Shown: one piece after another, positions 1 through 13,034 of the stretch | Layout of the letters: each line of letters starts with the position of its first letter | How positions within the stretch are numbered: the first letter of the stretch is position 1 | Source: a virus | Taxonomy: Duplodnaviria; Heunggongvirae; Uroviricota; Caudoviricetes | DNA length: 13,034 nucleotides | Strand: one strand, 5' to 3' | Virus record (IMG/VR): IMGVR_UViG_2654587571_000008 | Span: 1-13,034 of that record | The notes under the pieces: generated by a model | The model's input: only the letters and a program-made list of their open reading frames with translations | What the model was told of the DNA's origin: nothing | The model's database searches: none | Program-made: the position numbers and the translations under genes

Positions 1-68
1 GGTGGCGGCGGCACAGTTGGTGTGGCGGCCTCAGTCCGGAACAATTTGAAAACCAGAACCTCGCTTAG
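1..68 (+). CDS. IS3-family transposase (OrfB) C-terminal fragment; 5' end outside window
   Basis: Codons 3..65 translate to WRRHSWCGGLSPEQFENQNLA followed by TAG at 66..68. From memory this matches the conserved C-terminus of IS3-type OrfB transposases. Confidence 0.7.
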   Translation, partial: WRRHSWCGGLSPEQFENQNLA

Positions 69-98
69 GCCTGTGTCCATATTACGTGGGTAGGATCA
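1..98 (+). mobile_element. Terminal ~98 bp of an IS3-family insertion sequence (right end, including transposase 3' end); body lies outside the window to the left
   Basis: Positions 4..98 are the exact reverse complement of 12940..13034. The element ends ...GGATCA at 98, matching the TGA...TCA termini typical of IS3-family elements (recalled). The transposase reading frame ends inside it. Confidence 0.75.
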
Positions 99-557
99 GA
101 GTTAGTTGTTATACTCAATCAAATCAGCACACTAACTGCTTTAAGTGAGCATCCAAAACTCGGTATCGGCGCTGTTGACATATCACTTTATAACCAGTCG
201 ATATTAACGTCTGAACATAATGGCAATGTTGCAACCATCGAGATAAAACACCATTATCCAAAGGATTTACTTTATCGGCAAGTTCAAGAAGACATCATTT
301 CCGATATTTCAAGAGTAATAGTTTCACCAACTACACACTTTATCCATATAATCCAGCAAAGAACCAAGATTAAAACTCCTTCTTTTGGTCAAGTGAAATT
401 CCTTGAACGTGATGCAAGTGATATCAGCACTTATGTGCAATGTCTTGAGGAGCTAAGTTCATTTCCCAGTAATTTTCATAAAAAAAGTGTATGTATTGAG
501 GTACTTGGTGAAATTATGTCGACATATACCTTTAACGTATATTCATTTGACAACTGA
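99..557 (+). pseudogene. 5'-truncated ORF of unknown function, cut by the IS end; AT-rich, in the bor-like position convergent with Rz1
   Basis: One frame is open from 69 to the TGA at 555..557 (162 codons) in very AT-rich DNA. The first in-frame ATG/GTG is at 393/516 with no Shine-Dalgarno, and the frame runs straight into the IS end at 98/99. Absent from the supplied ORF track because it has no start codon. Confidence 0.4.
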
Positions 558-578
558 TTAATTTGACAATTTTATTGC

Positions 579-836
579 TTAATGGTTAGTTCTCTCTGCA
601 TCTATTTTACGAATATCAGCTTTATCCCGATTGCAGTTAGCCAGCGCAGACAACAGACTCACATTCAGCTCCAGACTGGCACCATACGTCAGCGGATTAG
701 GTATAAACGGTACAGGAGTATCAGAAGTCAGGCTGGGTGGCAGTGGTGCCACCGGAACGCTCACGTAAACTGTCCGCGTACTTCCGCAACCGGTCAGCAG
801 CGGCAGCAGGCACAGCACGTGAAGCACAATCATCAT
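579..836 (-). CDS. Rz1: Rz1-like outer-membrane spanin lipoprotein (o-spanin), overlapping and extending beyond Rz
   Basis: Alternative frame inside the Rz gene. Begins MMIVLHVLCLLPLLTGC (signal peptide plus LLTGC lipobox) followed by a proline-rich region (VPVAPLPPSLTSDTPVPFIPNP). Confidence 0.55.
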   Translation of the reverse strand: MMIVLHVLCLLPLLTGCGSTRTVYVSVPVAPLPPSLTSDTPVPFIPNPLTYGASLELNVSLLSALANCNRDKADIRKIDAERTNH

Positions 837-1113
837 CCGCAACAGCCATTTTGATATCTTCCTGGGTTCTCTGTGACTCCAGTGCGATCTGCTGTTTTGC
901 ATGCTGGTTAGCCTCCAGTACTGTATTGACGATTTGCAGTGATTGCAGGACGTTATTGGTAATGGCAGTTGCCGATTTGGCATTTTGTACAGCCTCATCA
1001 GCACGTTTCTTTTCGTGCTGATATTTGCTGTAGTAGTGATTCGCTGACCAGATGAAAGAGCCAATAACAGTAAAGAAGAAAGCAGAGATAGTCAGCTTAT
1101 AACTCAACTTCAT
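721..1113 (-). CDS. Rz: Rz-like inner-membrane spanin (i-spanin)
   Basis: 130 aa with an N-terminal transmembrane anchor (LTISAFFFTVIGSFIW) and a charged, coiled-coil-like periplasmic domain. Lies immediately downstream of the endolysin and overlaps its 3' end. Confidence 0.7.
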   Translation of the reverse strand: MKLSYKLTISAFFFTVIGSFIWSANHYYSKYQHEKKRADEAVQNAKSATAITNNVLQSLQIVNTVLEANQHAKQQIALESQRTQEDIKMAVADDDCASRAVPAAAADRLRKYADSLRERSGGTTATQPDF

Positions 1114-1573
1114 TTACCACCCCACCAGCCTCTTTAAATCGGGCAATCAGGTCACCGATTTTATGTTCATACTGACCGTAACCTGCACCGGGTAATGAAG
1201 CCCATATATTGCTGCAACGGTCGATTGCCTGACGAATATCGCCGCTATCAATCATAGGTAAAGCGCCACGCTCTTTAATCTGCTGCAATGCCACTGCGTC
1301 CTGGCTTTTGGGGGAGAAGTCTTTCAAACCAAGCTGTTTACGGTAAGCATCCCACCAACGGGAAAGAAGCTGGTAACGTCCGGCGGCTGTTGATTTGAGT
1401 TTGGAGTTTAGCTTGACAAGTTTGCGAGGGTGATCGGAGTAATCAGTGAACAGTTCGCCACCAACAATAACATCATAACCGTGGTTACGTGTCGGTTGTC
1501 GCCCGTTATCCGTTCCTTCTGACCATGCCACCATATCAAGGAAAGCTTTACGCTGGGAATTTAGTACCTGCAT
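1097..1573 (-). CDS. Endolysin, lambda R-type (lytic transglycosylase, phage lysozyme family)
   Basis: 158 aa. N-terminus QRKAFLDMVAWSEGTDNGRQPTRNHGYDVIVGG and the rest match the recalled lambda R sequence almost residue for residue. Confidence 0.9.
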   Translation of the reverse strand: MQVLNSQRKAFLDMVAWSEGTDNGRQPTRNHGYDVIVGGELFTDYSDHPRKLVKLNSKLKSTAAGRYQLLSRWWDAYRKQLGLKDFSPKSQDAVALQQIKERGALPMIDSGDIRQAIDRCSNIWASLPGAGYGQYEHKIGDLIARFKEAGGVVNEVEL

Positions 1574-1576
1574 AAA

Positions 1577-1912
1577 TTACTCCTTAGAGCCACCAAACTT
1601 GTTACCGATTACTCGCATTGCAGCCCCACGAATAGCATCGACACCGATCAGCCCCACGCCACCACCAATGGCAACAGAAAGCGATTTAGGCCATCCGACA
1701 TACTCAAGAGCGGATGCAAAGGTCAGCGTCAGAGCGCCACAGAGCAAAATCTCGAGCGTTTTTCGCTTCCAGCCACCACCACCGCCAAAATAGGCGATGC
1801 GCAAACCAGCCATAACGATCGACATAATCACTGCACCCAGCGGTGTGTCTCCACGCCACCAGCTCTGAAACAACTCCAGCCAGTCCGGCCAGGTATTTGG
1901 GTTATGAGGCAT
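1577..1912 (-). CDS. Holin, lambda S-like (three predicted transmembrane segments)
   Basis: Start chosen at the internal ATG (1912..1910), preceded by GAGGTGAGAG. Three hydrophobic segments and a charged C-terminus, with AGLRIAYFGGGGG and LIGVDAIRGAAMRVI resembling lambda S. Stop is 3 nt before the endolysin start. Confidence 0.6.
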   Translation of the reverse strand: MPHNPNTWPDWLELFQSWWRGDTPLGAVIMSIVMAGLRIAYFGGGGGWKRKTLEILLCGALTLTFASALEYVGWPKSLSVAIGGGVGLIGVDAIRGAAMRVIGNKFGGSKE

Positions 1913-1955
1913 TTCGTCATCTCTCACCTCGCGATATTTGCGGGTGCTGTGTTGG

Positions 1956-1981
1956 AAATAAAAAGGCCACGCAACGTGGCC
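1956..1981 (-). terminator. Intrinsic terminator between the methyltransferase gene and the lysis cassette
   Basis: Perfect 7-bp GC-rich stem GGCCACG/CGTGGCC (1965..1971 and 1975..1981) with a 3-nt loop, followed on the minus-strand RNA by UUUUUAUUU. Confidence 0.6.
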
Positions 1982-1988
1982 ACCAGAA

Positions 1989-3044
1989 TTATTTCCCCAC
2001 CACCAGTTCACTTACCTCTTTCACCGTCTGATTAAACCGCTCTGTCTCAAGCTCAACACCTAACGCCCGACGCCCCAGCGCCATTGCTGCTTTTATTGTG
2101 GAACCGGATCCCATAAAGAAATCAGCAACCAGATCGCCGGGTCGACTACTGGCATTGATTATTTGCCTGAGCATATCCGCCGGTTTCTCACACGGATGTT
2201 TACCCGGGTAGAACTGAACGGGTTTATGCATCCAGACATCGGTATAAGGCACGGAGACTGATACGGAGAAATAGCGCCGGAGAGATTTAAACTCATCCAG
2301 CAATTCAGAATATTTGCGATTCAGTGAATCATAAGATGCCACCAACTGGTGGTGTGGTTGTTCCAGTTGTTGTTCCTGAAACTTCTCTGCCGCTATACGG
2401 GAAAACAGTGCCTGTAACTTCCGGTAGTCAGCCTCATTCGGCAACTGCCACTGACTGGCACCAAACCAGTGGGAAACCATATTTTTCTTACCTGTGGCTT
2501 CGGCAATTTGTTTTGCCGTTATACCCAGTTCGGCACGAGCATCCCTGAAATACGATATCAGCGGTGCCATTATGTGCTGTTTGAGTTCCCTTTCTTTTGC
2601 CGCATAGCCGTCACTTTTGCCGCGATATGGCCCCTGGTAATGTTCAGCAAACAGAACGCGCTCTGTGGCAGGAAAATATGCGCGCAGACTTTCTTTATTA
2701 CACCCATTCCAACGTCCGGACGGCTTCGCCCAGATGATATGGTTAAGCACGTTGAAACGTTCACGCATCATGATCTCAATATCAGATGCCAGGCGATGCC
2801 CACAGAACAGGTAAAGGCTTCCGGCAGGTTTCAACACCCGCCAGAACTGGGCCAGACAGTGGTCCAGCCACTTAAGGTAATCTTCGTCCCCTTTCCACTG
2901 ATTGTCCCAACCGTTGGGTTTCACCTTGAAGTACGGCGGATCGGTAACAATCAGGTCAATGGAATCATCAGGCAGGGACTGAATAAAATGCAGGCAATCA
3001 GCGTTGATTAAATCAACACTGTTTGTTTTTACAGTATTTTTCAT
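1989..3044 (-). CDS. DNA methyltransferase, N6/N4 family (beta-class, orphan)
   Basis: 351 aa with N-terminal motif IV (IVTDPPYF) and C-terminal motif I (DFFMGSGST). No adjacent restriction endonuclease. Confidence 0.85.
   Translation of the reverse strand: MKNTVKTNSVDLINADCLHFIQSLPDDSIDLIVTDPPYFKVKPNGWDNQWKGDEDYLKWLDHCLAQFWRVLKPAGSLYLFCGHRLASDIEIMMRERFNVLNHIIWAKPSGRWNGCNKESLRAYFPATERVLFAEHYQGPYRGKSDGYAAKERELKQHIMAPLISYFRDARAELGITAKQIAEATGKKNMVSHWFGASQWQLPNEADYRKLQALFSRIAAEKFQEQQLEQPHHQLVASYDSLNRKYSELLDEFKSLRRYFSVSVSVPYTDVWMHKPVQFYPGKHPCEKPADMLRQIINASSRPGDLVADFFMGSGSTIKAAMALGRRALGVELETERFNQTVKEVSELVVGK
3017..3036. promoter_or_regulatory. SOS-box-like palindrome (CTGT-N8-ACAG) overlapping codons 3-9 of the methyltransferase
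   Basis: cACTGTttgtttttACAGTA read directly; compare the recalled LexA consensus TACTGTATATATATACAGTA. It is the only CTGT-N8-ACAG site I found in the window. Confidence 0.3.
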
Positions 3045-3193
3045 GGATCAGTAAGCGTAACTCTGGTAGGCTCACTCTGCTTTTGCGCTAAAGCAGTGGG
3101 CCATGGTTCGCTTGTGACCAGTAAGCATGAGCGAATGGCTGGCAGGTGCTACCAACACCCACCAGCCGCCCATTTTCACAAATTAAAAGCCCT

Positions 3194-3388
3194 TCATTGC
3201 TGAAGGCGTCTGTAACAGCCGAACTGGTAATCTGCCAGCCCCGCCATAACCAGCTGGGTCAGTATTAACTGACAGCGTTCGCGTGAAAGGTATGTGTTTT
3301 GTGCAATCTCCCCGACTGTTGCCGGTTCGATGCTTAATTCATTAAAAACAACTTTCGCCGTTTCTGTCATATCTTGCTGTTTTAGCAT
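3194..3388 (-). CDS. Small (64 aa) putative winged-helix/HTH protein
   Basis: Start placed at the ATG at 3388 with AAGGGA about 8 nt upstream (the track ORF begins at 3412). ATVGEIAQNTYLSRERCQLILTQLVMAG looks like a helix-turn-helix. Confidence 0.4.
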   Translation of the reverse strand: MLKQQDMTETAKVVFNELSIEPATVGEIAQNTYLSRERCQLILTQLVMAGLADYQFGCYRRLQQ

Positions 3389-3509
3389 GTCTTTTTCCCT
3401 TCTGGTTAACATGACATACCAATAACTCTTGTCTAAAAAGCCAGCAAGATAAACAGTCAGTATTCACGACCACCAGCGTGTTTACCGTACTGCACCAATG
3501 TTTAATTTA

Positions 3510-3532
3510 TAAAAAAACCGCGAGAACGCGGT
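3510..3532 (-). terminator. Intrinsic terminator downstream of the 176-aa cargo gene
   Basis: 6-bp stem ACCGCG/CGCGGT (3517..3522 and 3527..3532) with a 4-nt loop. The plus-strand A7 run (3510..3516) gives a U7 tract after the hairpin on the minus-strand RNA. Confidence 0.6.
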
Positions 3533-3569
3533 AAGTATTGTTAAAAAACCAACAGTAATTTCACTCAAC

Positions 3570-4100
3570 TTATTTAATACATTCTTTTGCTTGCGCATAA
3601 TAAATTTTATGAGTATTAGCAAGCTTAACGAAGTTATACTTAACTGCCCCTAACAGGGTTCCAACTCTTGTATGCCCTTCCATTAAATGGAGCCCTGTTG
3701 TATTACTTTTCAGCAAAGCTCGATCTATAAAAAATGGTGGTTCGCACCATGTGCCAAAATTACACCAATGCGCTTTTATTTCATCATCCATAAATACATC
3801 ACCTTTACGGGTCATGTAATCTTCAACGACCTCATGCAAAAAATCAGGGCAAGTAGCATTATCCCCGATAGTTAAAAAGTTTTTAGTGGGAAGTTCAATC
3901 AATTTCCATTCAATTTGGTCAATATCAAGATCCCCATAAAGCTTCTGAAATCTGTCATCACCTACCAATCCATAATAAATCTCCTGAATTACAGGAGAGG
4001 GGGCAATGATAGAATATTGCTCACGAAGTATTCTTTCAGCCTCAGGAGCTTCAAATATGGTTCTTTCTGAGAAAATAGGCAGAAGATCTCGGTATAACAT
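3570..4100 (-). CDS. Hypothetical protein (176 aa), AT-rich cargo gene between Q and the lysis genes
   Basis: Long ORF in locally AT-rich DNA, with a GGGGAT Shine-Dalgarno upstream of the ATG and a strong terminator downstream. No family recognised. Confidence 0.5.
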   Translation of the reverse strand: MLYRDLLPIFSERTIFEAPEAERILREQYSIIAPSPVIQEIYYGLVGDDRFQKLYGDLDIDQIEWKLIELPTKNFLTIGDNATCPDFLHEVVEDYMTRKGDVFMDDEIKAHWCNFGTWCEPPFFIDRALLKSNTTGLHLMEGHTRVGTLLGAVKYNFVKLANTHKIYYAQAKECIK

Positions 4101-4132
4101 CCATATCCCCGTGTAAGAAAAAATAATTTAAC

Positions 4133-4152
4133 CCGCTCGGCTGCGGTTTTTT
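4133..4152. terminator. Short GC hairpin with flanking A and T tracts (candidate tR-prime, possibly bidirectional)
   Basis: CCGC tcggct GCGG followed by TTTTTT on the plus strand and preceded by an A-rich run. On the minus strand it sits about 40-55 nt downstream of the predicted late promoter. Confidence 0.35.
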
Positions 4153-4194
4153 GGACTTATCAACGGTAGACACACAAAGCCCATCGTTGAGAAA

Positions 4195-4223
4195 ATCTTA
4201 TCCATGTTTTTTGAAAAATGCAA
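4195..4223 (-). promoter_or_regulatory. Candidate late promoter (PR-prime-like) immediately downstream of the Q gene
   Basis: Minus strand reads TTGCAT, 17-nt spacer, TAAGAT (complement of 4218..4223 and 4195..4200), in the 154-bp gap between Q and the first late gene. Confidence 0.35.
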
Positions 4224-4254
4224 GCATCATGTCGCTATCTTTGTTGAAAATCAT

Positions 4255-5007
4255 TTATCTTGTCACTTTTCTCAATTGCGCTTCAGCATATGCTTCTTCC
4301 TGCCAGCACTTTGTAACCAGTTTATCAATGACGTCTGCATATCCTTTGTACCACTGATAATCCGTCAGGTCTGTTACCAGATTCTGGACATGACGTCGTG
4401 CCAGTGTGGTTGGTAAACGGCTAAATCGGTTTCCATTGCAACGCCCACAAATCTTATAAACAGGCGTGCCATGAAGCCGGGTTCTTTTTTCATCCAGGAC
4501 AATACCTTTACCCTTACATCCTCTGCACGCTGTGCTGACTTCTCCCTTACCATGACAATGCTGACATAGTTCCTTCACCCACTCTTCCTTGATAACAGAT
4601 TCCCCGTTTCTGGAGTGTTTCACCACTTCGCGCAATACATTATGAAATCCAGTACCAGCACAATGCTCACAGCGAGCCTTACTTGCCGCAGATCTGGAAT
4701 AATCAGCAAAGGCAAAATTCACAAGGTAAGGAATGATCTGTAGCCGGGTTTCTTCACTCAATTTGTTCAATGTCGGGTTATCCAGTGCCATCGCGTAATT
4801 GAGCAGACCTTCAATCGCAAACTGAGGATCCTGAACACCAACTTTTGCCAGGAATAAGGCAAAACCCAGTGGTGCTTTCGACTGCACCATCCCCTGCGCA
4901 GCCATCACATCTGTAATTGTTAAACCACCCGAGCCTGTCGCCGGTGCGTCATCACTCAATTTTGGAGATTTTGGGGAGTAATATTTTGGTAAGGCTTCAA
5001 GGTTCAT
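4255..5007 (-). CDS. Q-like late antiterminator with four CxxCxGxG zinc-finger motifs
   Basis: 250 aa with CEHCAGTG, CQHCHGKG, CRGCKGKG and CGRCNGNR. Sits directly upstream of the late promoter/terminator region. Good GGAGAA Shine-Dalgarno. Length agrees with the long Q-like proteins of E. coli prophages (recalled). Confidence 0.55.
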   Translation of the reverse strand: MNLEALPKYYSPKSPKLSDDAPATGSGGLTITDVMAAQGMVQSKAPLGFALFLAKVGVQDPQFAIEGLLNYAMALDNPTLNKLSEETRLQIIPYLVNFAFADYSRSAASKARCEHCAGTGFHNVLREVVKHSRNGESVIKEEWVKELCQHCHGKGEVSTACRGCKGKGIVLDEKRTRLHGTPVYKICGRCNGNRFSRLPTTLARRHVQNLVTDLTDYQWYKGYADVIDKLVTKCWQEEAYAEAQLRKVTR

Positions 5008-5020
5008 GCTCGTTCTCCAC

Positions 5021-6016
5021 TTACGCCAGTACGCCTATTGCCAGCGCACGATCGATAAAACGAAATATCAGCTCCAACTGGGAGCCATACATCTCTTCAA
5101 ATGCCACGGTATCCGCATGCAGCTCGTCGTGATGCTTTCTGCACAAAGGCAACACAAAGAGGTCATGCGCTTTTGTACCCATTCCCCCCTGACCGTGGCC
5201 TATCAGGTGGTGGGGATCATCAGCAAGCTTTCCACAACATGCACACGGCTGTGTCTTAACCCAGCGCGTGTACTTTTCATTAACCCAGCGGCGACGTTTT
5301 GGGCGTAACATAAAAGACTCCGGCGACTCCGGATCCACTTTCAGCGCCAGCACCTTTTTCGCTTTATCCTGGATAATGCTGGTGGCAGGAACCGAAGGCA
5401 CAAGGTCACTTTCCCGGGTGACAGACGGCACAACAGGCTTCGGTAATCTCAGTGCCTTACGGGCTGCACTTTCCGGTAAGGCATCCGCCAGGTCATTACG
5501 AATCAGCCACCAGCACAGTTCCGGCATTGTCACAACGTGACTGTCATCAAAACCGAGATCCCGACGCACAACAGACAACACCCAACGGGCACAGTTATCC
5601 GTTGCCATTGATTCCAGCCGTTCCGTGAACTGATCGCGCAGCTGGTTATCGCAGTGCCAGCAGAGACGGATTGCGCCCGGAGCGTGCCGCATTGTGGTCA
5701 TGTTCTCGCTGTGCCAGTCGGAATGAGGCCACTGGCAGCCTTTTTCACGAAGTAACCAGCTTTCAAGACATTCCACCCCACCAGCACGACGGATCACTGC
5801 CTCATTGCGGAACACGGCCCGAACGGCAGGATCATCCGCCAGCGGTTGTGATGCCGCGGGAACGGCACCACTGGCGAAAGATGAATAACGTTCCGGCTCA
5901 GGCTCCAGCAGGACACGCCCCTGCATAAACAGGGGCATCAGCTCTGAACCGGGCCTGAACAATACGATCCCCATACGCGGGGCAATTTCAGGGGTCAGTA
6001 GTGCTCTCACAGTCAC
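5021..6016 (-). CDS. DUF968-like prophage protein with a C-terminal Cys/His cluster (HNH-like)
   Basis: 331 aa. C-terminus PCACCGK...DPHH...GGMGTKAHDL...PLCRKHHDELH. Nin-region position between KilA-N and Q. Family assignment is from memory. Confidence 0.5.
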   Translation of the reverse strand: MTVRALLTPEIAPRMGIVLFRPGSELMPLFMQGRVLLEPEPERYSSFASGAVPAASQPLADDPAVRAVFRNEAVIRRAGGVECLESWLLREKGCQWPHSDWHSENMTTMRHAPGAIRLCWHCDNQLRDQFTERLESMATDNCARWVLSVVRRDLGFDDSHVVTMPELCWWLIRNDLADALPESAARKALRLPKPVVPSVTRESDLVPSVPATSIIQDKAKKVLALKVDPESPESFMLRPKRRRWVNEKYTRWVKTQPCACCGKLADDPHHLIGHGQGGMGTKAHDLFVLPLCRKHHDELHADTVAFEEMYGSQLELIFRFIDRALAIGVLA

Positions 6017-6017
6017 C

Positions 6018-6827
6018 TCAATGAACGGTATCGAGCAACTTTAACAGCTCGGGGAATCGGGATTCGAAGAAATGCGGCTGCGTCTCGCGCGGATTTGCGG
6101 GACTGGTGATGTTCTTGCCGAACATGCAGCCTTTCGCTGTCAGCGACCAGAATTTTTTGATGTTGTTAATCGCGGTACGGCTGTATCGTTCGCGCTGCTC
6201 GACGATCCCCAGCTTCACCATCTGGTGATATGCCTGATTAGCTGTCAGGCGGATACCATACTGCTTCAGCAGTGCACTCAGTGACAGCGTGGGGCGGCTT
6301 GAGCCATCAGGCGCGTCAGCAGGAGCATCAATGGCATAGCGCGGTGCCAGATTCGGTAAGCCAACAGCCTCCTGGAGTTTCTGACAGGCACCAAGCACTG
6401 AAGAGTTAGACAGGTTTAATTCCCGGCGCATAAAGTCCAGCAGAATCACACCAGCCTGCATCTTGTCAGCAGCCTGTCCGGATAATTTTTCCGGTGCGCT
6501 GGTTACCATATCGAAAGTACGGATCACCTTCAGATGGAATGACGGGCTGATCCACATTGCATAGGCATACACCAGTTCCTTGCAGACATACGTTCCCCGT
6601 TCATTTCCCCCATGAATCACACTCACCGGGTCAACACCCAAATTCTGAGTGTTGGTCAATTCATGAACAAGCTCAACAGTTTGTTGGCTGGAAAGAAACT
6701 TTCCTGGCTCCTTGGTTCTGGCATTTGCACCAGATGCTACTGCTGCGCGATGCAGATCGTTCAGACTGTAACGCCCATAAGCATCACGACGAACTTCAAT
6801 ACCATCAATGACCATCAGATTATTCAT
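6018..6827 (-). CDS. KilA-N domain protein (antirepressor-like)
   Basis: N-terminal ~100 aa (VIDGIEVRRDAYGRYSLNDLHRAA...GTYVCKELVYAYAMWISPSFHLKVIRTF) fits the KilA-N/APSES pattern. GAGGAG Shine-Dalgarno. Confidence 0.65.
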   Translation of the reverse strand: MNNLMVIDGIEVRRDAYGRYSLNDLHRAAVASGANARTKEPGKFLSSQQTVELVHELTNTQNLGVDPVSVIHGGNERGTYVCKELVYAYAMWISPSFHLKVIRTFDMVTSAPEKLSGQAADKMQAGVILLDFMRRELNLSNSSVLGACQKLQEAVGLPNLAPRYAIDAPADAPDGSSRPTLSLSALLKQYGIRLTANQAYHQMVKLGIVEQRERYSRTAINNIKKFWSLTAKGCMFGKNITSPANPRETQPHFFESRFPELLKLLDTVH

Positions 6828-6846
6828 ACTTCGTTTCTCCTCTTAA

Positions 6847-7236
6847 TCAGGCGGCTGCACCCGCCGTTTTCTCGTACTTACTTATAGTGATCTCGACCTT
6901 CCCTTCCGGGATAACCGGTCCCCACTCCACCAGCATTCTTTTCACCTGACTGTCGTCTTCCCACACACCCGCGTGGGTCAGGGCGTCAAACAGCGCCTTG
7001 TTATAGTTGTCCAGATCGCGGATCCGGTTATCCGGAGGAAACAACACGATCTCCACTGAAGCAGGTGCCGACGTTGGTTTTGGCAGACGACGTAACTGCT
7101 CAACTATTGCTGCACACGCCGCGCTCTGGAATTTGCGCCCCGCCGCGCTTATCAGGCTCTTACCTGCAAACGCCCCTTTGTTGGGGTGTCGCCAGTACGT
7201 GTTCACGCTGGGCGGAAAAGGCAGTATTAGCTTCAT
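6847..7236 (-). CDS. rusA: RusA Holliday-junction resolvase
   Basis: 129 aa. LPFPPSVNTYWRH and RDLDNYNKALFDALTHAGVWEDDSQV match the RusA signature, including the catalytic Asp cluster. Confidence 0.85.
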   Translation of the reverse strand: MKLILPFPPSVNTYWRHPNKGAFAGKSLISAAGRKFQSAACAAIVEQLRRLPKPTSAPASVEIVLFPPDNRIRDLDNYNKALFDALTHAGVWEDDSQVKRMLVEWGPVIPEGKVEITISKYEKTAGAAA

Positions 7237-7559
7237 ACTTTCAGGCCCCTCTCATGTAACCAGTGGGCTGCACGCAGCCTGGCGTTTGCCTCACCGGCAA
7301 GCAGTGCGCGGATAATCCCGACCGCCTCGCTGTCGTCGTCCTTCATCGCGGTATGAAGCGTTATCCCCCGGGCCACGCCACGCTTTATCGTGATGACGCC
7401 TTTTTTCTCCAGTGCTCGAAGATGCTCCACCGCTGCATTCACTGAACGGTATCCCAGCATGGTTGCCACCTCCTGATTGGTTGGCGGGAAGCCACGTTCT
7501 TTCTGGTAAGAAATCAGCATATCCAGCACCTGCTGCTGGCATTGAGTTAACGTCGTCAT
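7233..7559 (-). CDS. Standalone LexA N-terminal DNA-binding-domain homolog (no S24 peptidase domain)
   Basis: Residues 1-70 (LTQCQQQVLDMLISYQKERGFPPTNQEVATMLGYRSVNAAVEHLRALEKKGVITIKRGVARGITL) align with the recalled LexA N-terminus, followed by an unrelated 38-aa tail. ATGA overlaps with both neighbouring genes. Confidence 0.7.
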   Translation of the reverse strand: MTTLTQCQQQVLDMLISYQKERGFPPTNQEVATMLGYRSVNAAVEHLRALEKKGVITIKRGVARGITLHTAMKDDDSEAVGIIRALLAGEANARLRAAHWLHERGLKV

Positions 7560-8209
7560 GCAGCCATCTCCCTGACCAGTTTTTCCGCCTGCTGGCGAAC
7601 CTGCGCCAGAAAGGCCTCACCACATGCCTCAAGTTCATCGCGCCCGATGTAGCTGATTGCCGGTCCCTTCCAGGTCTTGTCGAAAACAGCAATAGCACCA
7701 GCGAAGAAAGCGCCTGTCGGCACCTGCTTCTCATCCTTCGGGATAAACCAGGCAGGCAGTTCAAAACCAATACGCCCGCGAATAAAAGCAATATGATCTG
7801 CATCTTCCGGCCACCACACTTCGCTGGTGGCAGCTTTGATCAGGAAAACATAGCGACCGCCTTTATCACGCATGGCACTGGCATGCTTCATGATGTAACG
7901 CATGCCGGTGATGTATTGCCCCTCATGCTGACTGGCGCGGCTGTATGGGGGATTACCAAAGGCAGCACCTTTAAGCTCCGCAAGACGTTCTGACCAGTCA
8001 TGTGCCAGCGCGTTGTCTTCCGCCGTGTAATACGCGGCACATTTGGCGTTATCACCGTCAGTGAACAGATCCAGAACAAACGGACCAAACAGGGTGTTAA
8101 TTCCCCAGAAAATGTTATCCGGCGTGCGCCACTGATCGCCCACTTCCTTCAGTTCATGGGCTGGTTTGTTCCGCAGCTCCACCAGCGCCCGGCAATATTT
8201 ATTACTCAT
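7556..8209 (-). CDS. Phage Dam-type N6-adenine DNA methyltransferase (orphan)
   Basis: FGNPPYS catalytic motif. Start placed at the ATG at 8209, which overlaps the upstream stop as TAATG (the track ORF extends to 8242). Confidence 0.75.
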   Translation of the reverse strand: MSNKYCRALVELRNKPAHELKEVGDQWRTPDNIFWGINTLFGPFVLDLFTDGDNAKCAAYYTAEDNALAHDWSERLAELKGAAFGNPPYSRASQHEGQYITGMRYIMKHASAMRDKGGRYVFLIKAATSEVWWPEDADHIAFIRGRIGFELPAWFIPKDEKQVPTGAFFAGAIAVFDKTWKGPAISYIGRDELEACGEAFLAQVRQQAEKLVREMAA

Positions 8210-8697
8210 TAAGCCCCCACGTAATTCCCTGACAGATACCACTCTTCACCTGATGCAGCCCGCTTGTTGCTTTTCCGTAAACACCGTTCACGACGCGCCA
8301 GAAAATTATTTCGTTCTGGCTGGGAGTGGCTTTCACGGAATGCCGCCATCCACACCGTTGCAGCACGACGGTATAAGCCCCTGGACTCCAGTTCTTCAGC
8401 CTGGCGGGTCAGGCACAAAATCACCCGGGGGTCGTTAGTGCCGACATAGAAATTGCGCACAGGTCTGGTTTCACGAACTGGTTGTGGTTCCGGCTCCTGC
8501 GCTCTCTCAGTCAGGCGCGGGAAATGTCTGCGTGTATCCCCTTCACAACGGTGAGCCACACGCCCACTCTGACGTAACTTGCTTGCTGACTGCAGAACGC
8601 GCTGCCGTGAGTAACCAGCAAAAGCATCTGCAATGTCTCCGGAAGTACACCCCGGATGAGCTTCAATGAATTTCTGAACGTCATTTAACAGACTCAT
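8209..8697 (-). CDS. Putative PerC/ANR-family-like transcriptional regulator with an N-terminal winged-helix-like region
   Basis: C-terminal ESRGLYRRAATVWMAAFRE...RRERCLRK resembles the GLWRRAA..W motif of PerC-type regulators (from memory). Start could be ATG 8697 or GTG 8703. Confidence 0.4.
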   Translation of the reverse strand: MSLLNDVQKFIEAHPGCTSGDIADAFAGYSRQRVLQSASKLRQSGRVAHRCEGDTRRHFPRLTERAQEPEPQPVRETRPVRNFYVGTNDPRVILCLTRQAEELESRGLYRRAATVWMAAFRESHSQPERNNFLARRERCLRKSNKRAASGEEWYLSGNYVGA

Positions 8698-8699
8698 GA

Positions 8700-9641
8700 T
8701 CACCCCCTGAATCCTGCCGGGATCTGGCTGTAGTCCACGTTGTCGTAACTGGATTTGAAGTACGGGTCTTCGCGTTTTTCGGTGTACGTGCTGACGGACG
8801 GCGATAAGCGCAGGGAAAGCTCATCCCATTTTTCCCGCAGCTTCGACGGGCTGAGCACGTTACGGCACCAGAACGGATCGCGGCTGACGCGGCTGTACAT
8901 CTCGCAGATTTGTTTGTGAGTACGACTATCCTGCACACACATCAGGCGAATTTCGTTTGCCCAGGCTGTCCAGTTCGGTTCTTTGGGACGAACCACCTCG
9001 CCGTCACATTCGGCGGCCTGCTCGTACAGGGCGATGATTTTTTTCCAGAGCCACTGTGCACAGGTCAAATCATCCTGCGTTCCCCACTGGCGCTTTTTAG
9101 GGCTGAATACAACCGCATCAGGATGGCGAGTTAAAAACTCCTGTTCAGCCGTCTGCGTGTCCGGTTGCGAAGCGTCCGGACGAGAAGTTTTTTTATCTGA
9201 CGGATCATGTTTTGATTTTACTGACGGATCCCCGCCAGATTCTGACGGGTGAAAACCCGCTTTTTTGCCAGATTTCGACGCATCAAATTTTGACGGGTCA
9301 GATTTTGATGCGTCAGATTTTGACGGGTCAGAATCTGACAGTTGAGAAAATGCCGCTGCCTGAAGCTTCGCAACGTTAAGCTGATAAACATTCGACGCAT
9401 TGCGGTTACCCTGGCGACGCGCCTTACGCGTTAACCAGCCTTCTGCTTCCAGCCGTGCGATAGCCGTTCTGACGGTACTCATCCCCGCGCCAATCTGACG
9501 GGCAATGGTTTCAATTGATGGCCAGCACACACCTTCGTCATTACTGAAATCAGCCAGGCGGGCCATAATTGCCACACTGGATAACTTCATGCCTGATGCA
9601 GCGCAACCATCCCATACATAGCCGGTTAATTTAGTGCTCAT
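8700..9641 (-). CDS. Replication initiator, lambda O-like organisation (N-terminal wHTH, origin iterons inside the gene)
   Basis: 313 aa. N-terminal HTH-like region (WPSIETIARQIGAGMSTVRTAIARLEAEGW). The central low-complexity DPSKSDASKSDPSKFDASKS is encoded by tandem DNA repeats. Confidence 0.65.
   Translation of the reverse strand: MSTKLTGYVWDGCAASGMKLSSVAIMARLADFSNDEGVCWPSIETIARQIGAGMSTVRTAIARLEAEGWLTRKARRQGNRNASNVYQLNVAKLQAAAFSQLSDSDPSKSDASKSDPSKFDASKSGKKAGFHPSESGGDPSVKSKHDPSDKKTSRPDASQPDTQTAEQEFLTRHPDAVVFSPKKRQWGTQDDLTCAQWLWKKIIALYEQAAECDGEVVRPKEPNWTAWANEIRLMCVQDSRTHKQICEMYSRVSRDPFWCRNVLSPSKLREKWDELSLRLSPSVSTYTEKREDPYFKSSYDNVDYSQIPAGFRG
9195..9345. repeat. Iteron array (candidate replication origin) within the initiator gene
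   Basis: Eight or more copies of a TYTGACGG-type unit, including near-perfect 15-bp tandem repeats (gattttgacgggtca / gattttgatgcgtca / gattttgacgggtca at 9301..9345), plus a nearby A/T-rich stretch. Confidence 0.55.
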
Positions 9642-9650
9642 GACCGACCT

Positions 9651-9989
9651 CTATTTCCCTGAATTTACGACGAAACTGTTCGAGCGGACTGAAGCATTCA
9701 TGCTCATAACCTTCGCGGAGGTAGATAACCCGTTGTGTTTCCGGCTCCCAACGAATGACTCTGACGGGCACTCCGTAGTGATCTTTGAACCAGCGGTTAA
9801 CTTGTCGCAAAGGACTGTCTCCTTCTGCCGGTTGAAATCACCCACAGCCCACTCTGCAAAGCTGTGGGTTACAATTTCCCTGTCACCTGGTACATTCACT
9901 GCATAGCAATATTCCACCTTCGCTTTTCCACCCGGTACAGGAAGCGCAATCAGTTGCGAGCGACGGTAGTGTGTTGTTAAACTGTTCAT
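9651..9989 (-). CDS. Hypothetical protein (112 aa) between the CII-like and initiator genes
   Basis: ATGA overlap with the upstream CII-like gene and AGAGG upstream of the following gene. No family recognised. An overlapping plus-strand ORF (9634..9906) makes the strand assignment uncertain. Confidence 0.35.
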
Positions 9990-10543
9990 GCGTTAGTTTC
10001 TCCACAACCAGAAGCAATCGACGCCACGACGCCCGGAGCTGCACACTCGCGGGCGTCATTACTTTCTGAAATGCAAAAGATTTTGTAGACCAGTGCTGCA
10101 TGCTCCTGCAGCTTCGAAATTGAGAGATACAGCTCGTCGTTAATTGCTGTCTTCTCATGCGGTTCCACTACACCGTCTTCGATTGCTGAACGAATCTGTT
10201 TTGAATAACTGCCGATCTGTTCAATGACTTCCAGCAGACGCTGGTTAATATCGGCGTTGTCCACATCCTCGACGTCAGGAAGAGACACAAATACGCCATT
10301 TGCAGACTGCGCCACAGCATCAGCAATGAAGTGAGTGCCACCAGCACGCTGTAAAACCATTGCCCATCCCAGCGGAAAAATCTGATCGCCATCTGCACGA
10401 AGGCGGTTGAATAAAGCGTTCTCTGTTACATCCAGCCAGTCAGCGGCTTCAGCGTAACCACCCGGCAACGCCGCGATAGTTTTTCTGACAGCTTTCACGT
10501 ACCACTCAGGCTGTTTTTCTATTTTCCAGTGATGCTTACCCAC
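9986..10543 (-). CDS. CII-like phage regulatory protein (185 aa)
   Basis: Start placed at GTG 10543, with AAGGAG 6 nt upstream (the track ORF begins at 10648 and would overlap cro). [16 protein letters not shown] resembles CII-type regulators (from memory). Confidence 0.45.
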
Positions 10544-10565
10544 GGCTATCTCCTTAAAACTGTGG

Positions 10566-10814
10566 TTACTTTTCATCTGATGAATCTTTAATCTTTTGAA
10601 AAATATCTGGACGTAATTTTTCTTTTGATATGCCAGTGGTCTTTTCAATGAATATCGAGAGCTTTGCAGGGGGACGCTTTTCTCTGTTCAACCAGTTCCA
10701 GACATGTTGTTGCTTTACTAAATGACCGCTGCTGGCTGTGAGCTTCCGAGCCAATTCTGATTGACCACCAGCCAGAGCGATTGCCTCCGATAAGGCTAAT
10801 TGCTCAGGTGTCAT
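10566..10814 (-). CDS. Cro-like HTH repressor
   Basis: 82 aa with an HTH (QSELARKLTASSGHL). Divergent from the cI-like gene across an operator-rich intergenic region. GGAG Shine-Dalgarno. Confidence 0.7.
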   Translation of the reverse strand: MTPEQLALSEAIALAGGQSELARKLTASSGHLVKQQHVWNWLNREKRPPAKLSIFIEKTTGISKEKLRPDIFQKIKDSSDEK

Positions 10815-10949
10815 AGCTTTCTCCTTTTTTGGTAGTTAAGTTGTTACGAGTTGCAAGAATACAACATTAACAACTTTTATCACAACTTTTAGGTGTTGGA
10901 AAGCTAAAACATAAAGTTGTAACCTCATCAAAAAAGAGAGGGATATGTT
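10815..10949. promoter_or_regulatory. Right operator/promoter region between cro-like and cI-like genes
   Basis: Contains five copies of AAGTTGT/ACAACTT (at about 10838, 10861, 10870, 10882 and 10914) and AGGTGTT. The same sequence blocks recur at 12560..12620. Confidence 0.5.
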
Positions 10950-11636
10950 GTGAAAACACTGGCAGAACGATTAAAGATAGGTAGAGAGAAAGCTGGCATG
11001 AGCCAAGCTCAACTAGCTGAAAAAATTGGACTTTCACAACAATCTGTAGCCAAAATAGAGAATGGCGAAACTCTACAACCGCGCAAAATTAAAGAAATTG
11101 CAAAAGTTTTAGGTGTATCACAAAAGTGGTTACAACTTGGTATTGAAGATAACGCATCCATACCTGATCTTGTTGTAAAAGAAGCAGAAAGCACCGCATT
11201 AGACCCCGATATTTTCGTAAACATTCCTGTTTTAGATGTCGAGTTATCGGCAGGTAACGGATGTCTGGCTGAAATAGTTGAATCAGCTATTGACTGGTTT
11301 CCGTTAAGAAGAGCAGATTTGAGAAAATCTGGCGTATGTGCATCTAATGCCAAGATCGTAAAAATATGGGGGAACAGTTTATTACCGGTTCTCAATAATG
11401 GAGATCTTGTTGCCGTTGATATTTCTCAAACCGTTCCTATTCGTGATGGCGATCTTTATGCCGTACGAGATGGTGTATTGCTAAGGGTTAAAATACTTAT
11501 CAACTTACCTGACGGTGGCTTGATTCTTAGAAGCTTCAACAAAGATGAGTACCCAGATGAAATACTCACCTTTGAAGATAGACGAGCCAGAATTCATGTT
11601 ATAGGTAGGGTATTCTGGTCATCGCGAACTTGGTAA
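10950..11636 (+). CDS. CI/LexA-type prophage repressor (HTH plus S24 peptidase, autocleavable)
   Basis: GTG start with AGAGAGGGA upstream. N-terminal HTH (MSQAQLAEKIGLSQQSVAKIENGE), an Ala-Gly cleavage site (LSAGNG), catalytic Ser (WGNSLLP) and Lys (LLRVKIL). Confidence 0.85.
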   Translation: MKTLAERLKIGREKAGMSQAQLAEKIGLSQQSVAKIENGETLQPRKIKEIAKVLGVSQKWLQLGIEDNASIPDLVVKEAESTALDPDIFVNIPVLDVELSAGNGCLAEIVESAIDWFPLRRADLRKSGVCASNAKIVKIWGNSLLPVLNNGDLVAVDISQTVPIRDGDLYAVRDGVLLRVKILINLPDGGLILRSFNKDEYPDEILTFEDRRARIHVIGRVFWSSRTW

Positions 11637-12509
11637 TGCATCGAAAAGCATTTCTTCAGAAATAATTTTAAGTTTTGCACCATTATCATCCCTATAAGAT
11701 ATAGCTTTTTCGATCTTCCTTCCGTGACTTGAGAATTTCCAATCACGGGAGGAAAGCGTCCCAATTACTAAAAAATCCAACTTTTGAGTAATTCCACTAC
11801 TGATGTTCCCACCAGCATTTTTAATCAAATTTTCAACTACGGCTCTCTTTCCTGCAACAAAAGTGCCTGTAAGACAATAGGTTTTACCCTCTAACTCTAT
11901 CGAAGCCCCTACATCAATAGGCAGCCTGGTCGCCAAACCATCCACCACCCCACTTTCCAAGTCACATCCTGTGAAGTCTACTAATGCCTTATGTAGAGTT
12001 AAACTCTCATCTTCAGTAATAACCCCATCTTTAAGAATTTCCTTTACAAGTGCATAAAGTTTTTTTCCTGGGTAGTTGTTCTTCAAAGCTCCATTTTGCT
12101 CAAGCCACCAATTAAGATATCTTATTTCTTCTTGAGTTAAGTTCCGATCAGCAATTAATCCTTTACATAGTCCATTAAGTAAATGGACATCTACATCCTT
12201 GGAGTAAAAATCAATTTCAGGGATATCAAGAATTTCCCTCTGTATTTGGAGAAGGCTATTTTTAAGGTCATCACGTTCTTCTGATGTGATTATTCCATCC
12301 GCAAGAATATCCGACACCCGTGCTGATAGACTTTTTATAACTCCATTATTGATAATCTGCTTTGCTTCAAGTAACCATGTATCTAAGTAAAGAACCTCCT
12401 CTTCACGGACAACTCCATCTGCAATGATTCCATCAATGATGCTAATCAAGTTAGCAAATAACTTGTCCCGGTTCTGTGTGTAATTAAAAGCGTAAAGCGC
12501 GTCTTCCAT
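11619..12509 (-). CDS. Uncharacterised protein with four N-terminal DG-x-I-T-x-EE repeats (TerB-like?) and a C-terminal BRCT-like domain; candidate superinfection-exclusion/defence gene
   Basis: Start placed at ATG 12509, with AGGAGG 5 nt upstream. C-terminus GKTYCLTGTFVAGKRAVVENLIKNAGGNISSGITQKLDFLVIGTL...AKLKIISEEMLFDAL follows the BRCT pattern of NAD-ligase C-termini. The 3' end overlaps the cI-like gene by 18 bp. Confidence 0.6.
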   Translation of the reverse strand: MEDALYAFNYTQNRDKLFANLISIIDGIIADGVVREEEVLYLDTWLLEAKQIINNGVIKSLSARVSDILADGIITSEERDDLKNSLLQIQREILDIPEIDFYSKDVDVHLLNGLCKGLIADRNLTQEEIRYLNWWLEQNGALKNNYPGKKLYALVKEILKDGVITEDESLTLHKALVDFTGCDLESGVVDGLATRLPIDVGASIELEGKTYCLTGTFVAGKRAVVENLIKNAGGNISSGITQKLDFLVIGTLSSRDWKFSSHGRKIEKAISYRDDNGAKLKIISEEMLFDALPSSR

Positions 12510-12559
12510 ACAACCTCCTTTTTTTGATAATCCTTGCACTCCTTGGCTACTCGTTCAAA

Positions 12560-12625
12560 CCACATAAAGTTGTTGACAACATTCAAAACCACAACTAAAT
12601 TACAACTTAAAGGTGTTAAAACAAC
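12560..12625 (+). promoter_or_regulatory. Left operator/promoter region with a PL-like rightward promoter
   Basis: Consensus -35 TTGACA (12573..12578), 17-nt spacer, -10 TAAATT (12596..12601). An imperfect dyad AAGTTGT-TG-ACAACAT (12567..12582) overlaps the -35. Operator motifs are shared with the right operator region. Confidence 0.5.
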
Positions 12626-12697
12626 GAACAGGCAGGACGCCCACGAAGTAGCCGCCTGGGGCATATGAAGTCCAGGATGATTCGTTAGCAACAAAAA

Positions 12698-12729
12698 AGC
12701 GCCCTACAGGACGCTTAGCTCTTTAACAA
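12698..12729 (+). promoter_or_regulatory. Candidate antitermination (nut-like) site: boxB-like hairpin followed by an rrn-type BoxA
   Basis: Hairpin AGCGCCC-uaca-GGACGCU (12698..12715, one mismatch), then GCTCTTTAACAA (12718..12729), identical to the recalled core of the E. coli rrn BoxA. It lies in the leader between the promoter and the first gene. Confidence 0.45.
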
Positions 12730-12774
12730 TCTGGTCCCCATCAACAAGTAACTGATAACTTGAGGAGGTGTGAA

Positions 12775-12942
12775 ATGCACAAAACAGAACCAAAAATCGT
12801 CGCACCCGGATACACAAATGAGGAAATTTACGAGTGGATGGCAAAGAAGCTGGCAGCTATAAACCAGCTTCGTGAAGTGCTGTCTTATCGACAGGAAACA
12901 ATAGACTCCTTAAAAAAACTGGATCAGGAAATCACGGTTTGA
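12775..12942 (+). CDS. Small ORF (55 codons) of unknown function, probably 3'-truncated by the IS; stop codon supplied by the IS terminus
   Basis: Strong AGGAGG Shine-Dalgarno 6 nt upstream of the ATG. The TGA at 12940..12942 is the first three bases of the IS end. Confidence 0.45.
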   Translation: MHKTEPKIVAPGYTNEEIYEWMAKKLAAINQLREVLSYRQETIDSLKKLDQEITV

Positions 12943-13034
12943 TCCTACCCACGTAATATGGACACAGGCCTAAGCGAGGTTCTGGTTTTCAAATTGTTCC
13001 GGACTGAGGCCGCCACACCAACTGTGCCGCCGCC
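12940..13034 (-). mobile_element. Terminal 95 bp of a second, inverted IS3-family copy; body lies outside the window to the right
   Basis: Exact reverse complement of 4..98. The window ends inside the element. Confidence 0.75.
12970..13034 (-). CDS. IS3-family transposase (OrfB) C-terminal fragment; 5' end outside window
   Basis: Mirror image of 1..68, with the stop codon TAG at 12972..12970 on the minus strand. Confidence 0.7.
   Translation of the reverse strand, partial: RRHSWCGGLSPEQFENQNLA

Follow-up and report, generated by a model that had tools for sequence, protein, structure and literature searches.

The subject of this work is a small gene carried on the minus strand of a 13,034-nucleotide (nt) stretch of prophage DNA (positions 1 to 13,034 of the IMG/VR record IMGVR_UViG_2654587571_000008), which as a whole is called the window here. 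The gene encodes a protein of 108 amino acids (aa) that consists of a LexA-type N-terminal domain (NTD), a winged helix-turn-helix (wHTH), followed by a helical tail, and we refer to it as the LexA-NTD protein. Our analysis suggests, with moderate confidence, that it is a stand-alone LexA-type protein that would bind operators of the SOS-box type as a RecA-insensitive repressor and so damp SOS-controlled promoters while the phage grows lytically. The parts of the gene that matter for the argument are as follows.

7233..7559, minus strand: gene of the LexA-NTD-only protein, a 108-aa open reading frame (ORF) with its stop codon at 7233-7235
7353..7559, minus strand: LexA-type winged helix-turn-helix DNA-binding domain, residues 1-69
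7404..7445, minus strand: recognition helix, residues 39-52, placed from alignments
7236..7352, minus strand: residues 70-108, a flexible linker and then two conserved helices (75-88 and 93-103)

An earlier note on this DNA had assigned about 70 residues of the protein to the LexA N-terminal wHTH, and our searches confirm the assignment. The Pfam family LexA_DNA_bind (PF01726) matches residues 1-65 over the whole of its 65-position profile (E 2.9e-19, 69.1 bits against a cut-off of 23.7), and the top matches among solved structures are the E. coli LexA NTD 1lea (6e-16, residues 2-70) and full-length LexA (about 1e-15). A single-sequence AlphaFold model was poor, with a predicted local distance difference test score (pLDDT) of 57, and an AlphaFold2 model from a 40-sequence family alignment was used instead (pLDDT 84.3; monomer only, predicted template modelling score, pTM, 0.57). 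This model has helices at residues 6-22, 28-35 and 40-52 and strands at 56-58 and 66-68, followed by the two tail helices. Structural alignment to the LexA N-terminal domain, which the note had proposed as a check, was run with Foldseek and ranked the LexA-DNA complex 3jso first, with a root-mean-square deviation (rmsd) of 1.0-1.1 Å across 67-68 residues and 50-51% identity. PADLOC returned only a weak, generic wHTH match for the protein.

The S24 peptidase domain is missing, as had also been noted: the protein stops at residue 108, and the Pfam search of its 108 residues gave no match to the S24 family. The NCBIfam lexA equivalog TIGR00498 aligns over profile positions 1-91 of 203 only and, at 70.6 bits, falls under its cut-off of 110.95. 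Because the defining protease/dimerisation domain is absent, the phage protein is not a bona fide LexA, and because it has no S24 catalytic domain we infer that RecA-stimulated self-cleavage is ruled out. The comparison with E. coli LexA is therefore one of a shared wHTH (rmsd about 1 Å, 50% identity), including S39, N41, A42 and E45 and the wing residues G61, R64, G65 and I66, set against the loss of the S24 domain, of Ser119/Lys156 and of the LexA dimer interface.

The helix-3 residues with which LexA contacts DNA are Ser39, Asn41, Ala42, Glu44 and Glu45 (PMC3091678). The residue numbering of the phage protein is co-linear with that of E. coli LexA to about residue 70, and four of these five contacts are the same in both, with V44 replacing Glu44. 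Across the family alignment S39 is invariant and N41 nearly so, and the four wing residues named above are likewise conserved; 14 of the 17 columns that are invariant in a LexA reference set are kept, the differences being R28N, S63A and the conservative F37Y. In the LexA-DNA structure both wings reportedly touch within one minor groove and so set the half-site spacing, and the preservation of the wings therefore argues for the same 16-bp operator geometry. The isolated LexA NTD, a fragment that the phage protein resembles, is reported to keep some SOS-box binding and repression, hence its degradation by cells (PMC10584840). The phage protein differs from this fragment in that its C-terminus is a helical module, with no exposed ...VAA end. 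Since such an exposed end is said to be what makes the LexA fragment a ClpXP target, the phage protein may be stable.

With the base-reading residues and the wing kept and the self-cleavage machinery absent, a RecA-proof SOS-box repressor is the most likely explanation. The fold and domain content, and the coupling, selection and neighbourhood described below, lead us to infer a DNA specificity, an oligomeric state, a repressor activity and a biological benefit along the following lines. The protein would accumulate after induction or infection through its translational coupling in the nin operon, and its LexA base-reading residues and wing would bring it to LexA-type CTGT half-sites, that is, to SOS boxes. 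Activated RecA would be unable to remove a repressor that has no Ser/Lys self-cleavage machinery, and dimerisation or stability, which a bare LexA NTD lacks, would come from the tail. As long as DNA damage persists, SOS-controlled promoters of the host chromosome, of co-resident mobile elements and of the phage itself would then be re-closed or damped. That the protein, expressed from the early operon in this phage or, in relatives, straight from SOS-box promoters along with DinI, is a RecA-proof surrogate LexA which re-occupies SOS boxes during damage, so that the phage imposes a shut-off or a pulse of the SOS regulon, is possible, and we put it forward tentatively.

The gene is widespread and maintained. 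Of 5426 complete E. coli genomes, 2233 (41%) carry it, with up to four copies per genome, and in 2223 of them it is intact, at least 80% of the gene length being covered. Among 46 distinct alleles, drawn from 80 IMG/VR loci and the window (synonymous polymorphism, pS, about 0.10), the ratio of nonsynonymous to synonymous polymorphism (pN/pS) is 0.066 for the whole gene, 0.008 for the DNA-binding domain and 0.18 for the tail. The gene is under strong purifying selection, which is strongest on the part that reads DNA. Its architecture is truncated relative to LexA, as would be expected of a non-functional remnant of a captured lexA, but that origin is effectively refuted by the selection analysis; it also fits poorly with the number of intact copies, with a full-length family that is conserved, tail included, to about 40% identity, and with the presence of translational coupling and a Shine-Dalgarno sequence. 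The near-frozen state of the NTD holds among prophages with differing cI and Q modules, as would be expected if its target did not co-evolve with phage immunity.

The 38-aa helical tail had been described as unrelated to LexA, and this stands: the modelled helices span residues 75-88 and 93-103, and the profile alignment with LexA ends at about residue 75. The tail is kept in relatives of 40-52% identity, where A97 and L101 are nearly invariant, and a tail profile searched against PDB sequences and Pfam gave nothing significant. A derivation of the tail from LexA was considered, as pairwise alignments (HMMER, tblastn), which run to about residue 90, place IIRALLAGE opposite the LexA cleavage-site sequence VGRVAAGE. 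It was rejected. The AGE motif is not family-wide, VERE, TRKE, DDQP and ACSV being seen in its place, and a family profile with no LexA rows aligns with the LexA profile only to about residue 75; an apparent extension to residue 99 was an artefact of a LexA row in the query alignment. Homology with the Ala84-Gly85 cleavage-site region of LexA was not found, and the LLAGE resemblance is superficial. As judged from these alignments, the tail is a conserved family-specific module and not LexA-derived, and we propose that it is a dimerisation or partner-binding module.

A conserved tail (A97, L101; pN/pS as given above) without a known fold relative could also be the working part of the protein, acting on a host protein such as RecA*, LexA, ClpX or RNA polymerase, with the LexA-like domain as a decoy or localisation module. 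The superficial likeness of LLAGE to the LexA cleavage motif VAAGE and the presence of dinI and recA beside the genes of relatives would agree with such a role. We find it very improbable, given that the AGE motif is not shared across the family, that the alignment to the LexA profile ends near residue 75, that the DNA-binding domain is much more strongly constrained than the tail, and that lexA_2 of the Edwardsiella phage EPP-1 is a 71-aa version without any tail. Another arrangement is seen in P0132, P0133, P0147, P0148, P0152 and others from a library of representative proteins, which carry two LexA-type wHTH stretches in tandem in proteins of 141-352 aa; in these, two LexA NTDs may form a 'dimer' within a single chain.

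The window covers the early-right and lysis genes of a lambdoid prophage, and the LexA-NTD gene lies within its delayed-early rightward (nin) operon. The earlier note had described it as translationally coupled through ATGA overlaps in the replication/nin operon; both overlaps, with the Dam gene and with rusA, are legible in the sequence, and the neighbouring genes fit.

7556..7559, minus strand: ATGA overlap of the Dam gene stop and the LexA-NTD gene start, read from the sequence
7233..7236, minus strand: ATGA overlap of the LexA-NTD gene stop and the rusA start, read from the sequence
7568..7573, minus strand: Shine-Dalgarno-like AGGGAG, 8 nt 5' of the LexA-NTD gene ATG, read from the sequence
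7556..8242, minus strand: phage Dam N6-adenine methyltransferase, the upstream gene (Pfam PF05869, 1.2e-45)
6847..7236, minus strand: RusA Holliday-junction resolvase, the downstream gene (Pfam PF05866)
5021..6016, minus strand: DUF968 gene (Orf-like domain and HNH)
8700..9641, minus strand: O-like replication gene

The true start of the Dam gene is probably at the methionine of MSNKYC near 8209, according to the NCBI Prokaryotic Genome Annotation Pipeline (PGAP) annotation in E. coli ATCC 43886. The minus-strand genes run from a cro-like gene through the O-like gene, PerC/YfdN, Dam, the LexA-NTD gene, RusA, KilA-N and DUF968 to the antiterminator Q, two small genes, an N6_N4 methyltransferase, holin, lysozyme and Rz, and a cI-like repressor gene occupies the plus strand.

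In relatives the gene keeps characteristic company, although the neighbourhood counts come from phylogenetically related loci and are therefore not independent. The 80 near-identical loci share the order O-like, YfdN, Dam, LexA-NTD, RusA, KilA-N, DUF968 (and then Q), with the Dam gene missing in 12, and phage mEp390 has the same nin-region order as the window. Among the genes downstream of LexA-NTD genes, DUF968 is the one most regularly present, in close and distant loci alike, and it joins an Orf-like recombination-mediator domain to HNH (PMC4118853). The place directly upstream of the LexA-NTD gene is taken in different loci by methyltransferases from four unrelated Pfam families (C-5, D12, MT-A70 and PF05869), often with an overlap, which reflects a hotspot for methylase insertion or else a functional pairing.

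L173:4022..6004, L209:5159..6052, L213:5429..5998 and window 7556..8242: methyltransferases upstream of LexA-NTD genes

These partners raise the question of whether the protein is an accessory of DNA metabolism, in which the wHTH would tether or guide RusA, the DUF968 protein or the methyltransferases, or would control the adjacent methyltransferase. The near-constant synteny with DUF968, itself a recombination-mediator fusion, the frequent synteny with RusA in close and distant loci, and the variety of methyltransferases in the upstream slot are what such an accessory would lead one to expect. We nevertheless consider it improbable. The Dam gene is absent from the dozen close loci mentioned above, the dinI-linked subfamily has no adjacent methyltransferase, and we found neither fusion nor co-variation evidence. 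The nin region is known as a hotspot for genes of this kind, and synteny there can reflect inheritance with no functional link.

The dinI-linked subfamily is a sister group of about 130 aa and 40-45% identity that has the same tail. SOS boxes were scored with a matrix built from about 21 E. coli boxes, and a held-out dinB box was recovered as a control. The sister unit consists of a terminator, an SOS-box promoter, dinI (Pfam 1.7e-21), orf79, the LexA-NTD gene, orf67 and DUF968, and the promoter contains a near-consensus SOS box, for example TACTGTTTATTTATACAGTA. The terminator precedes the dinI promoter, and no other was detected beyond that promoter. One example is L190:5380..7630, with similar units in L187-L208 and L215 (all IMG/VR loci). 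Some sister loci have a second SOS box before a umuD'-like gene (our reading; Pfam gave no hit), and some carry a phage recA (Pfam 1e-130), which is complete in L206:4598..5683. The unit has the appearance of a module with which lambdoid phages tune the SOS response. Its orf79 was considered as a remnant of the LexA C-terminal domain and rejected (hhalign E 0.027 with a single sequence and 0.21 with a profile, probability below 2%, and no PDB hit). More widely, an SOS box of at least 16 bits lies within 1.5 kb upstream in 26 of 41 distant loci, and in Edwardsiella phage EPP-1 the order is SOS box, rha, lexA_2. That linkage to SOS-box promoters and to genes of the RecA pathway recurs in this way speaks for a role related to SOS.

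These loci also bear on an earlier statement that the protein would be made after induction. For the phage of the window this agrees with what we see, there being no promoter-like site nearby. In relatives an SOS-box promoter apparently drives the gene directly as well.

The window itself contains a strong SOS box, which the earlier note had proposed for binding tests with the phage protein.

3017..3036: strong SOS box TACTGTAAAAACAAACAGTG (minus-strand reading), at codons 3-9 of the N6_N4 methyltransferase gene (1989..3044, minus strand)

It scores about 20 bits, in the range of genuine boxes, while the runner-up site in the window scores 10.5. Its CTGT/ACAG arms are kept in Citrobacter, Morganella and Providencia phages, where the interior and the encoded amino acids vary, and a Klebsiella variant reads CTGT...CCAG. 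The conservation pattern makes it very likely that this is a real LexA operator, and suggests that the methyltransferase is a LexA-controlled moron whose operator lies 3' of the annotated start codon. The box persists in Morganella IME1369_02 and Citrobacter phiNP, which encode no LexA-NTD protein, a search with the family hidden Markov model (HMM) giving nothing at E<=10. Since the box is kept by phages without the gene, host LexA is its most likely user, and for the same reason we rejected the box as specific evidence for the phage protein. What remains of the earlier suggestion is a strong and conserved SOS box which gives no evidence of being the target of the phage protein, and which would also be a candidate operator for that protein if our hypothesis holds.

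Upstream of the methyltransferase gene, 3045..3193 (minus strand) is a non-coding stretch of about 150 nt between it and a small wHTH-like ORF (3194..3412). It is better conserved across genera than the flanking coding DNA and its fold (RNAalifold -38.7 kcal/mol) is a pair of long hairpins that show almost no covariation; searches of it gave no Rfam or tRNA match. It may be a structured leader or a small RNA.

Two further SOS boxes recur in the 80 close loci, and the window is without both. That phages with the gene contain strong boxes such as these agrees with the proposed role. One, TACTGTATTTATGAACAGTG, is found in the rusA/KilA-N intergenic region of 20 loci (in L011 at about 10655..10675, 764 bp after the LexA-NTD start), in which the KilA-N protein may be LexA-controlled. 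The other is a strong box inside the cI-like gene, present in 23 loci and seen also in E. coli ATCC 43886 (L008:23865..23884) and in phiNP (L010:35267..35286).

The closest characterised analogue of the LexA-NTD protein, and the only characterised phage-encoded truncated LexA homologue that our literature search found, is gp6 of the Bacillus thuringiensis tectivirus GIL01, which recognises a palindrome of its own that overlaps a -35 element and which switches on the late promoter P3 (Fornelos et al. 2018, PMC6182141). Both proteins are early products of a temperate phage and consist of a LexA winged helix without the S24 cleavage/dimerisation domain, and they are 44-51% identical to the LexA NTD of their own hosts, the value for gp6 being 44% (PMC6182141). 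They differ in that one belongs to a Bacillus tectivirus and the other to a lambdoid siphovirus/myovirus of Enterobacterales. A tblastn search of the phage protein against 50,697 phage records retrieved no Bacillus-phage record at E<=1e-5, and by this measure no kinship with gp6 beyond the shared LexA NTD was detected. The phage protein also has the additional conserved two-helix tail, keeps the LexA helix-3 contacts where gp6 reads its own palindrome, and belongs to a phage whose late genes are served by the Q antiterminator.

As gp6 demonstrates, a LexA homologue that has been truncated can come to read a new site and work as an activator, and this is one of several points that weigh against SOS-box repression by the phage protein. 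E44V, R28N and S63A depart from LexA, and E45 or N41 is lost in some family members. LexA's own dimerisation domain is absent, and the isolated LexA NTD is a weak binder. The hydrophobic moments of the tail are no better than those of shuffled sequence, and the role that we assign to the tail is a guess, the AlphaFold2 model being a monomer with the modest pTM given above. In the window we found no SOS-like site near the LexA-NTD gene, no enriched alternative spacing or orientation of CTGT/ACAG, and no conserved alternative palindrome. Loci with the gene have about 0.06 SOS boxes per kb, a density similar to that of two related phages without it. Lastly, the box upstream of dinI is canonical whether or not the linked protein has E45, so that there is no covariation between them.

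Some of these points would suit a phage-specific regulator of diverged specificity which, like gp6, has a non-SOS operator and activates or represses a phage promoter, for example in the timing of nin or late genes. Apart from the precedent of gp6 with its own palindrome and late promoter, such a regulator would account for the departures at E44, R28 and S63 and for the helix-3 changes in several relatives, and a dimer geometry imposed by the tail could shift the half-site spacing. We regard it as unlikely, though it deserves consideration. S39, N41, A42 and E45 are kept in the phage protein and in most relatives; the NTD is nearly invariant across immunity and Q modules, unlike regulator-operator pairs that co-evolve; the window offers neither a conserved alternative palindrome nor an enriched CTGT spacing that such a protein might read; and the late genes already have the Q antiterminator. 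An SOS-box repressor remains the explanation that we favour.

Mobile elements carry a number of devices that tune the SOS response, among them DinI homologues, GIL01 gp7, which strengthens LexA binding, and plasmid PsiB. If our hypothesis holds, the phage protein would be like these in being an SOS-damping factor encoded by a mobile element, and in the sister subfamily DinI homologues are physically linked to LexA-NTD genes. These factors act on the RecA or LexA protein, whereas the phage protein would act on the operators as a LexA surrogate.

Several other features of the window were recorded. Inside the O-like gene, at 9269..9332, there are four and a third copies of the 15-bp repeat CAGATTTTGACGGGT, which are probably origin iterons; an Rfam mir-5880 match at 9266..9340 is spurious and is explained by these repeats. 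Downstream of Q, a 176-aa ORF at 3570..4100 (minus strand) has no Pfam or PADLOC match and is followed by a strong intrinsic terminator at 3532..3517, ACCGCGTTCTCGCGGT and then T7. A 306-aa protein is encoded at 11619..12539 (minus strand), convergently with the cI-like repressor gene and at the position of rexAB in lambda; it has a BRCT domain at its C-terminus (Pfam 1.4e-6), and PADLOC gave a weak PDC-S48 match. Its gene is a candidate for a defence gene or moron expressed in the lysogen.

Databases already list this sequence family, which has been named by similarity. The protein matches PHROG 362 ('transcriptional repressor') at 4.2e-59, with residues 1-108 aligned to profile positions 1-106 of 106, and it is a typical member of that family, being 94-99% identical to the copies in E. 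coli and Shigella phages and in the same nin-region position. Members include those of SfV (gp42), SfII, SfIV, cdtI, mEp460, mEp390 (gp43) and the Shiga toxin (Stx) phages Stx2a and Stx2c. The PGAP name in E. coli genomes is 'LexA family transcriptional regulator', and phage records use 'LexA-like protein' and 'LexA DNA binding domain protein'. A scan of a genome collection returned, among the matches listed, host lexA genes only. Our literature search found no functional or experimental study of the lambdoid LexA-NTD family; mentions of a 'LexA family' in papers on Stx phages were set aside, as they refer to cI-type repressors. The CPS-53 remnant of E. coli K-12, which has yfdN and yfdM and is not known to carry the LexA-NTD gene, may be the reason that the family has received little attention.

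Should the protein bind a phage-specific site instead of SOS boxes, it would be one more nin-region regulator, of modest interest. If it is the repressor that we propose, it would be a Gram-negative counterpart of GIL01 gp6 with the opposite logic, a surrogate repressor instead of an activator. Host SOS functions, SOS-induced toxins, colicins and the LexA-controlled antirepressors of rival prophages would then be silenced, with an influence on mutagenesis, on competition within polylysogens and on Shiga-toxin output. The repressor would be produced exactly when DNA-damaging antibiotics induce prophages, so that the duration of the SOS response, SOS mutagenesis, the induction of neighbouring prophages and the production of Stx2 would be affected. 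If SOS boxes are indeed what the family binds, many E. coli and Shigella strains would carry from one to four copies of a RecA-proof SOS repressor.

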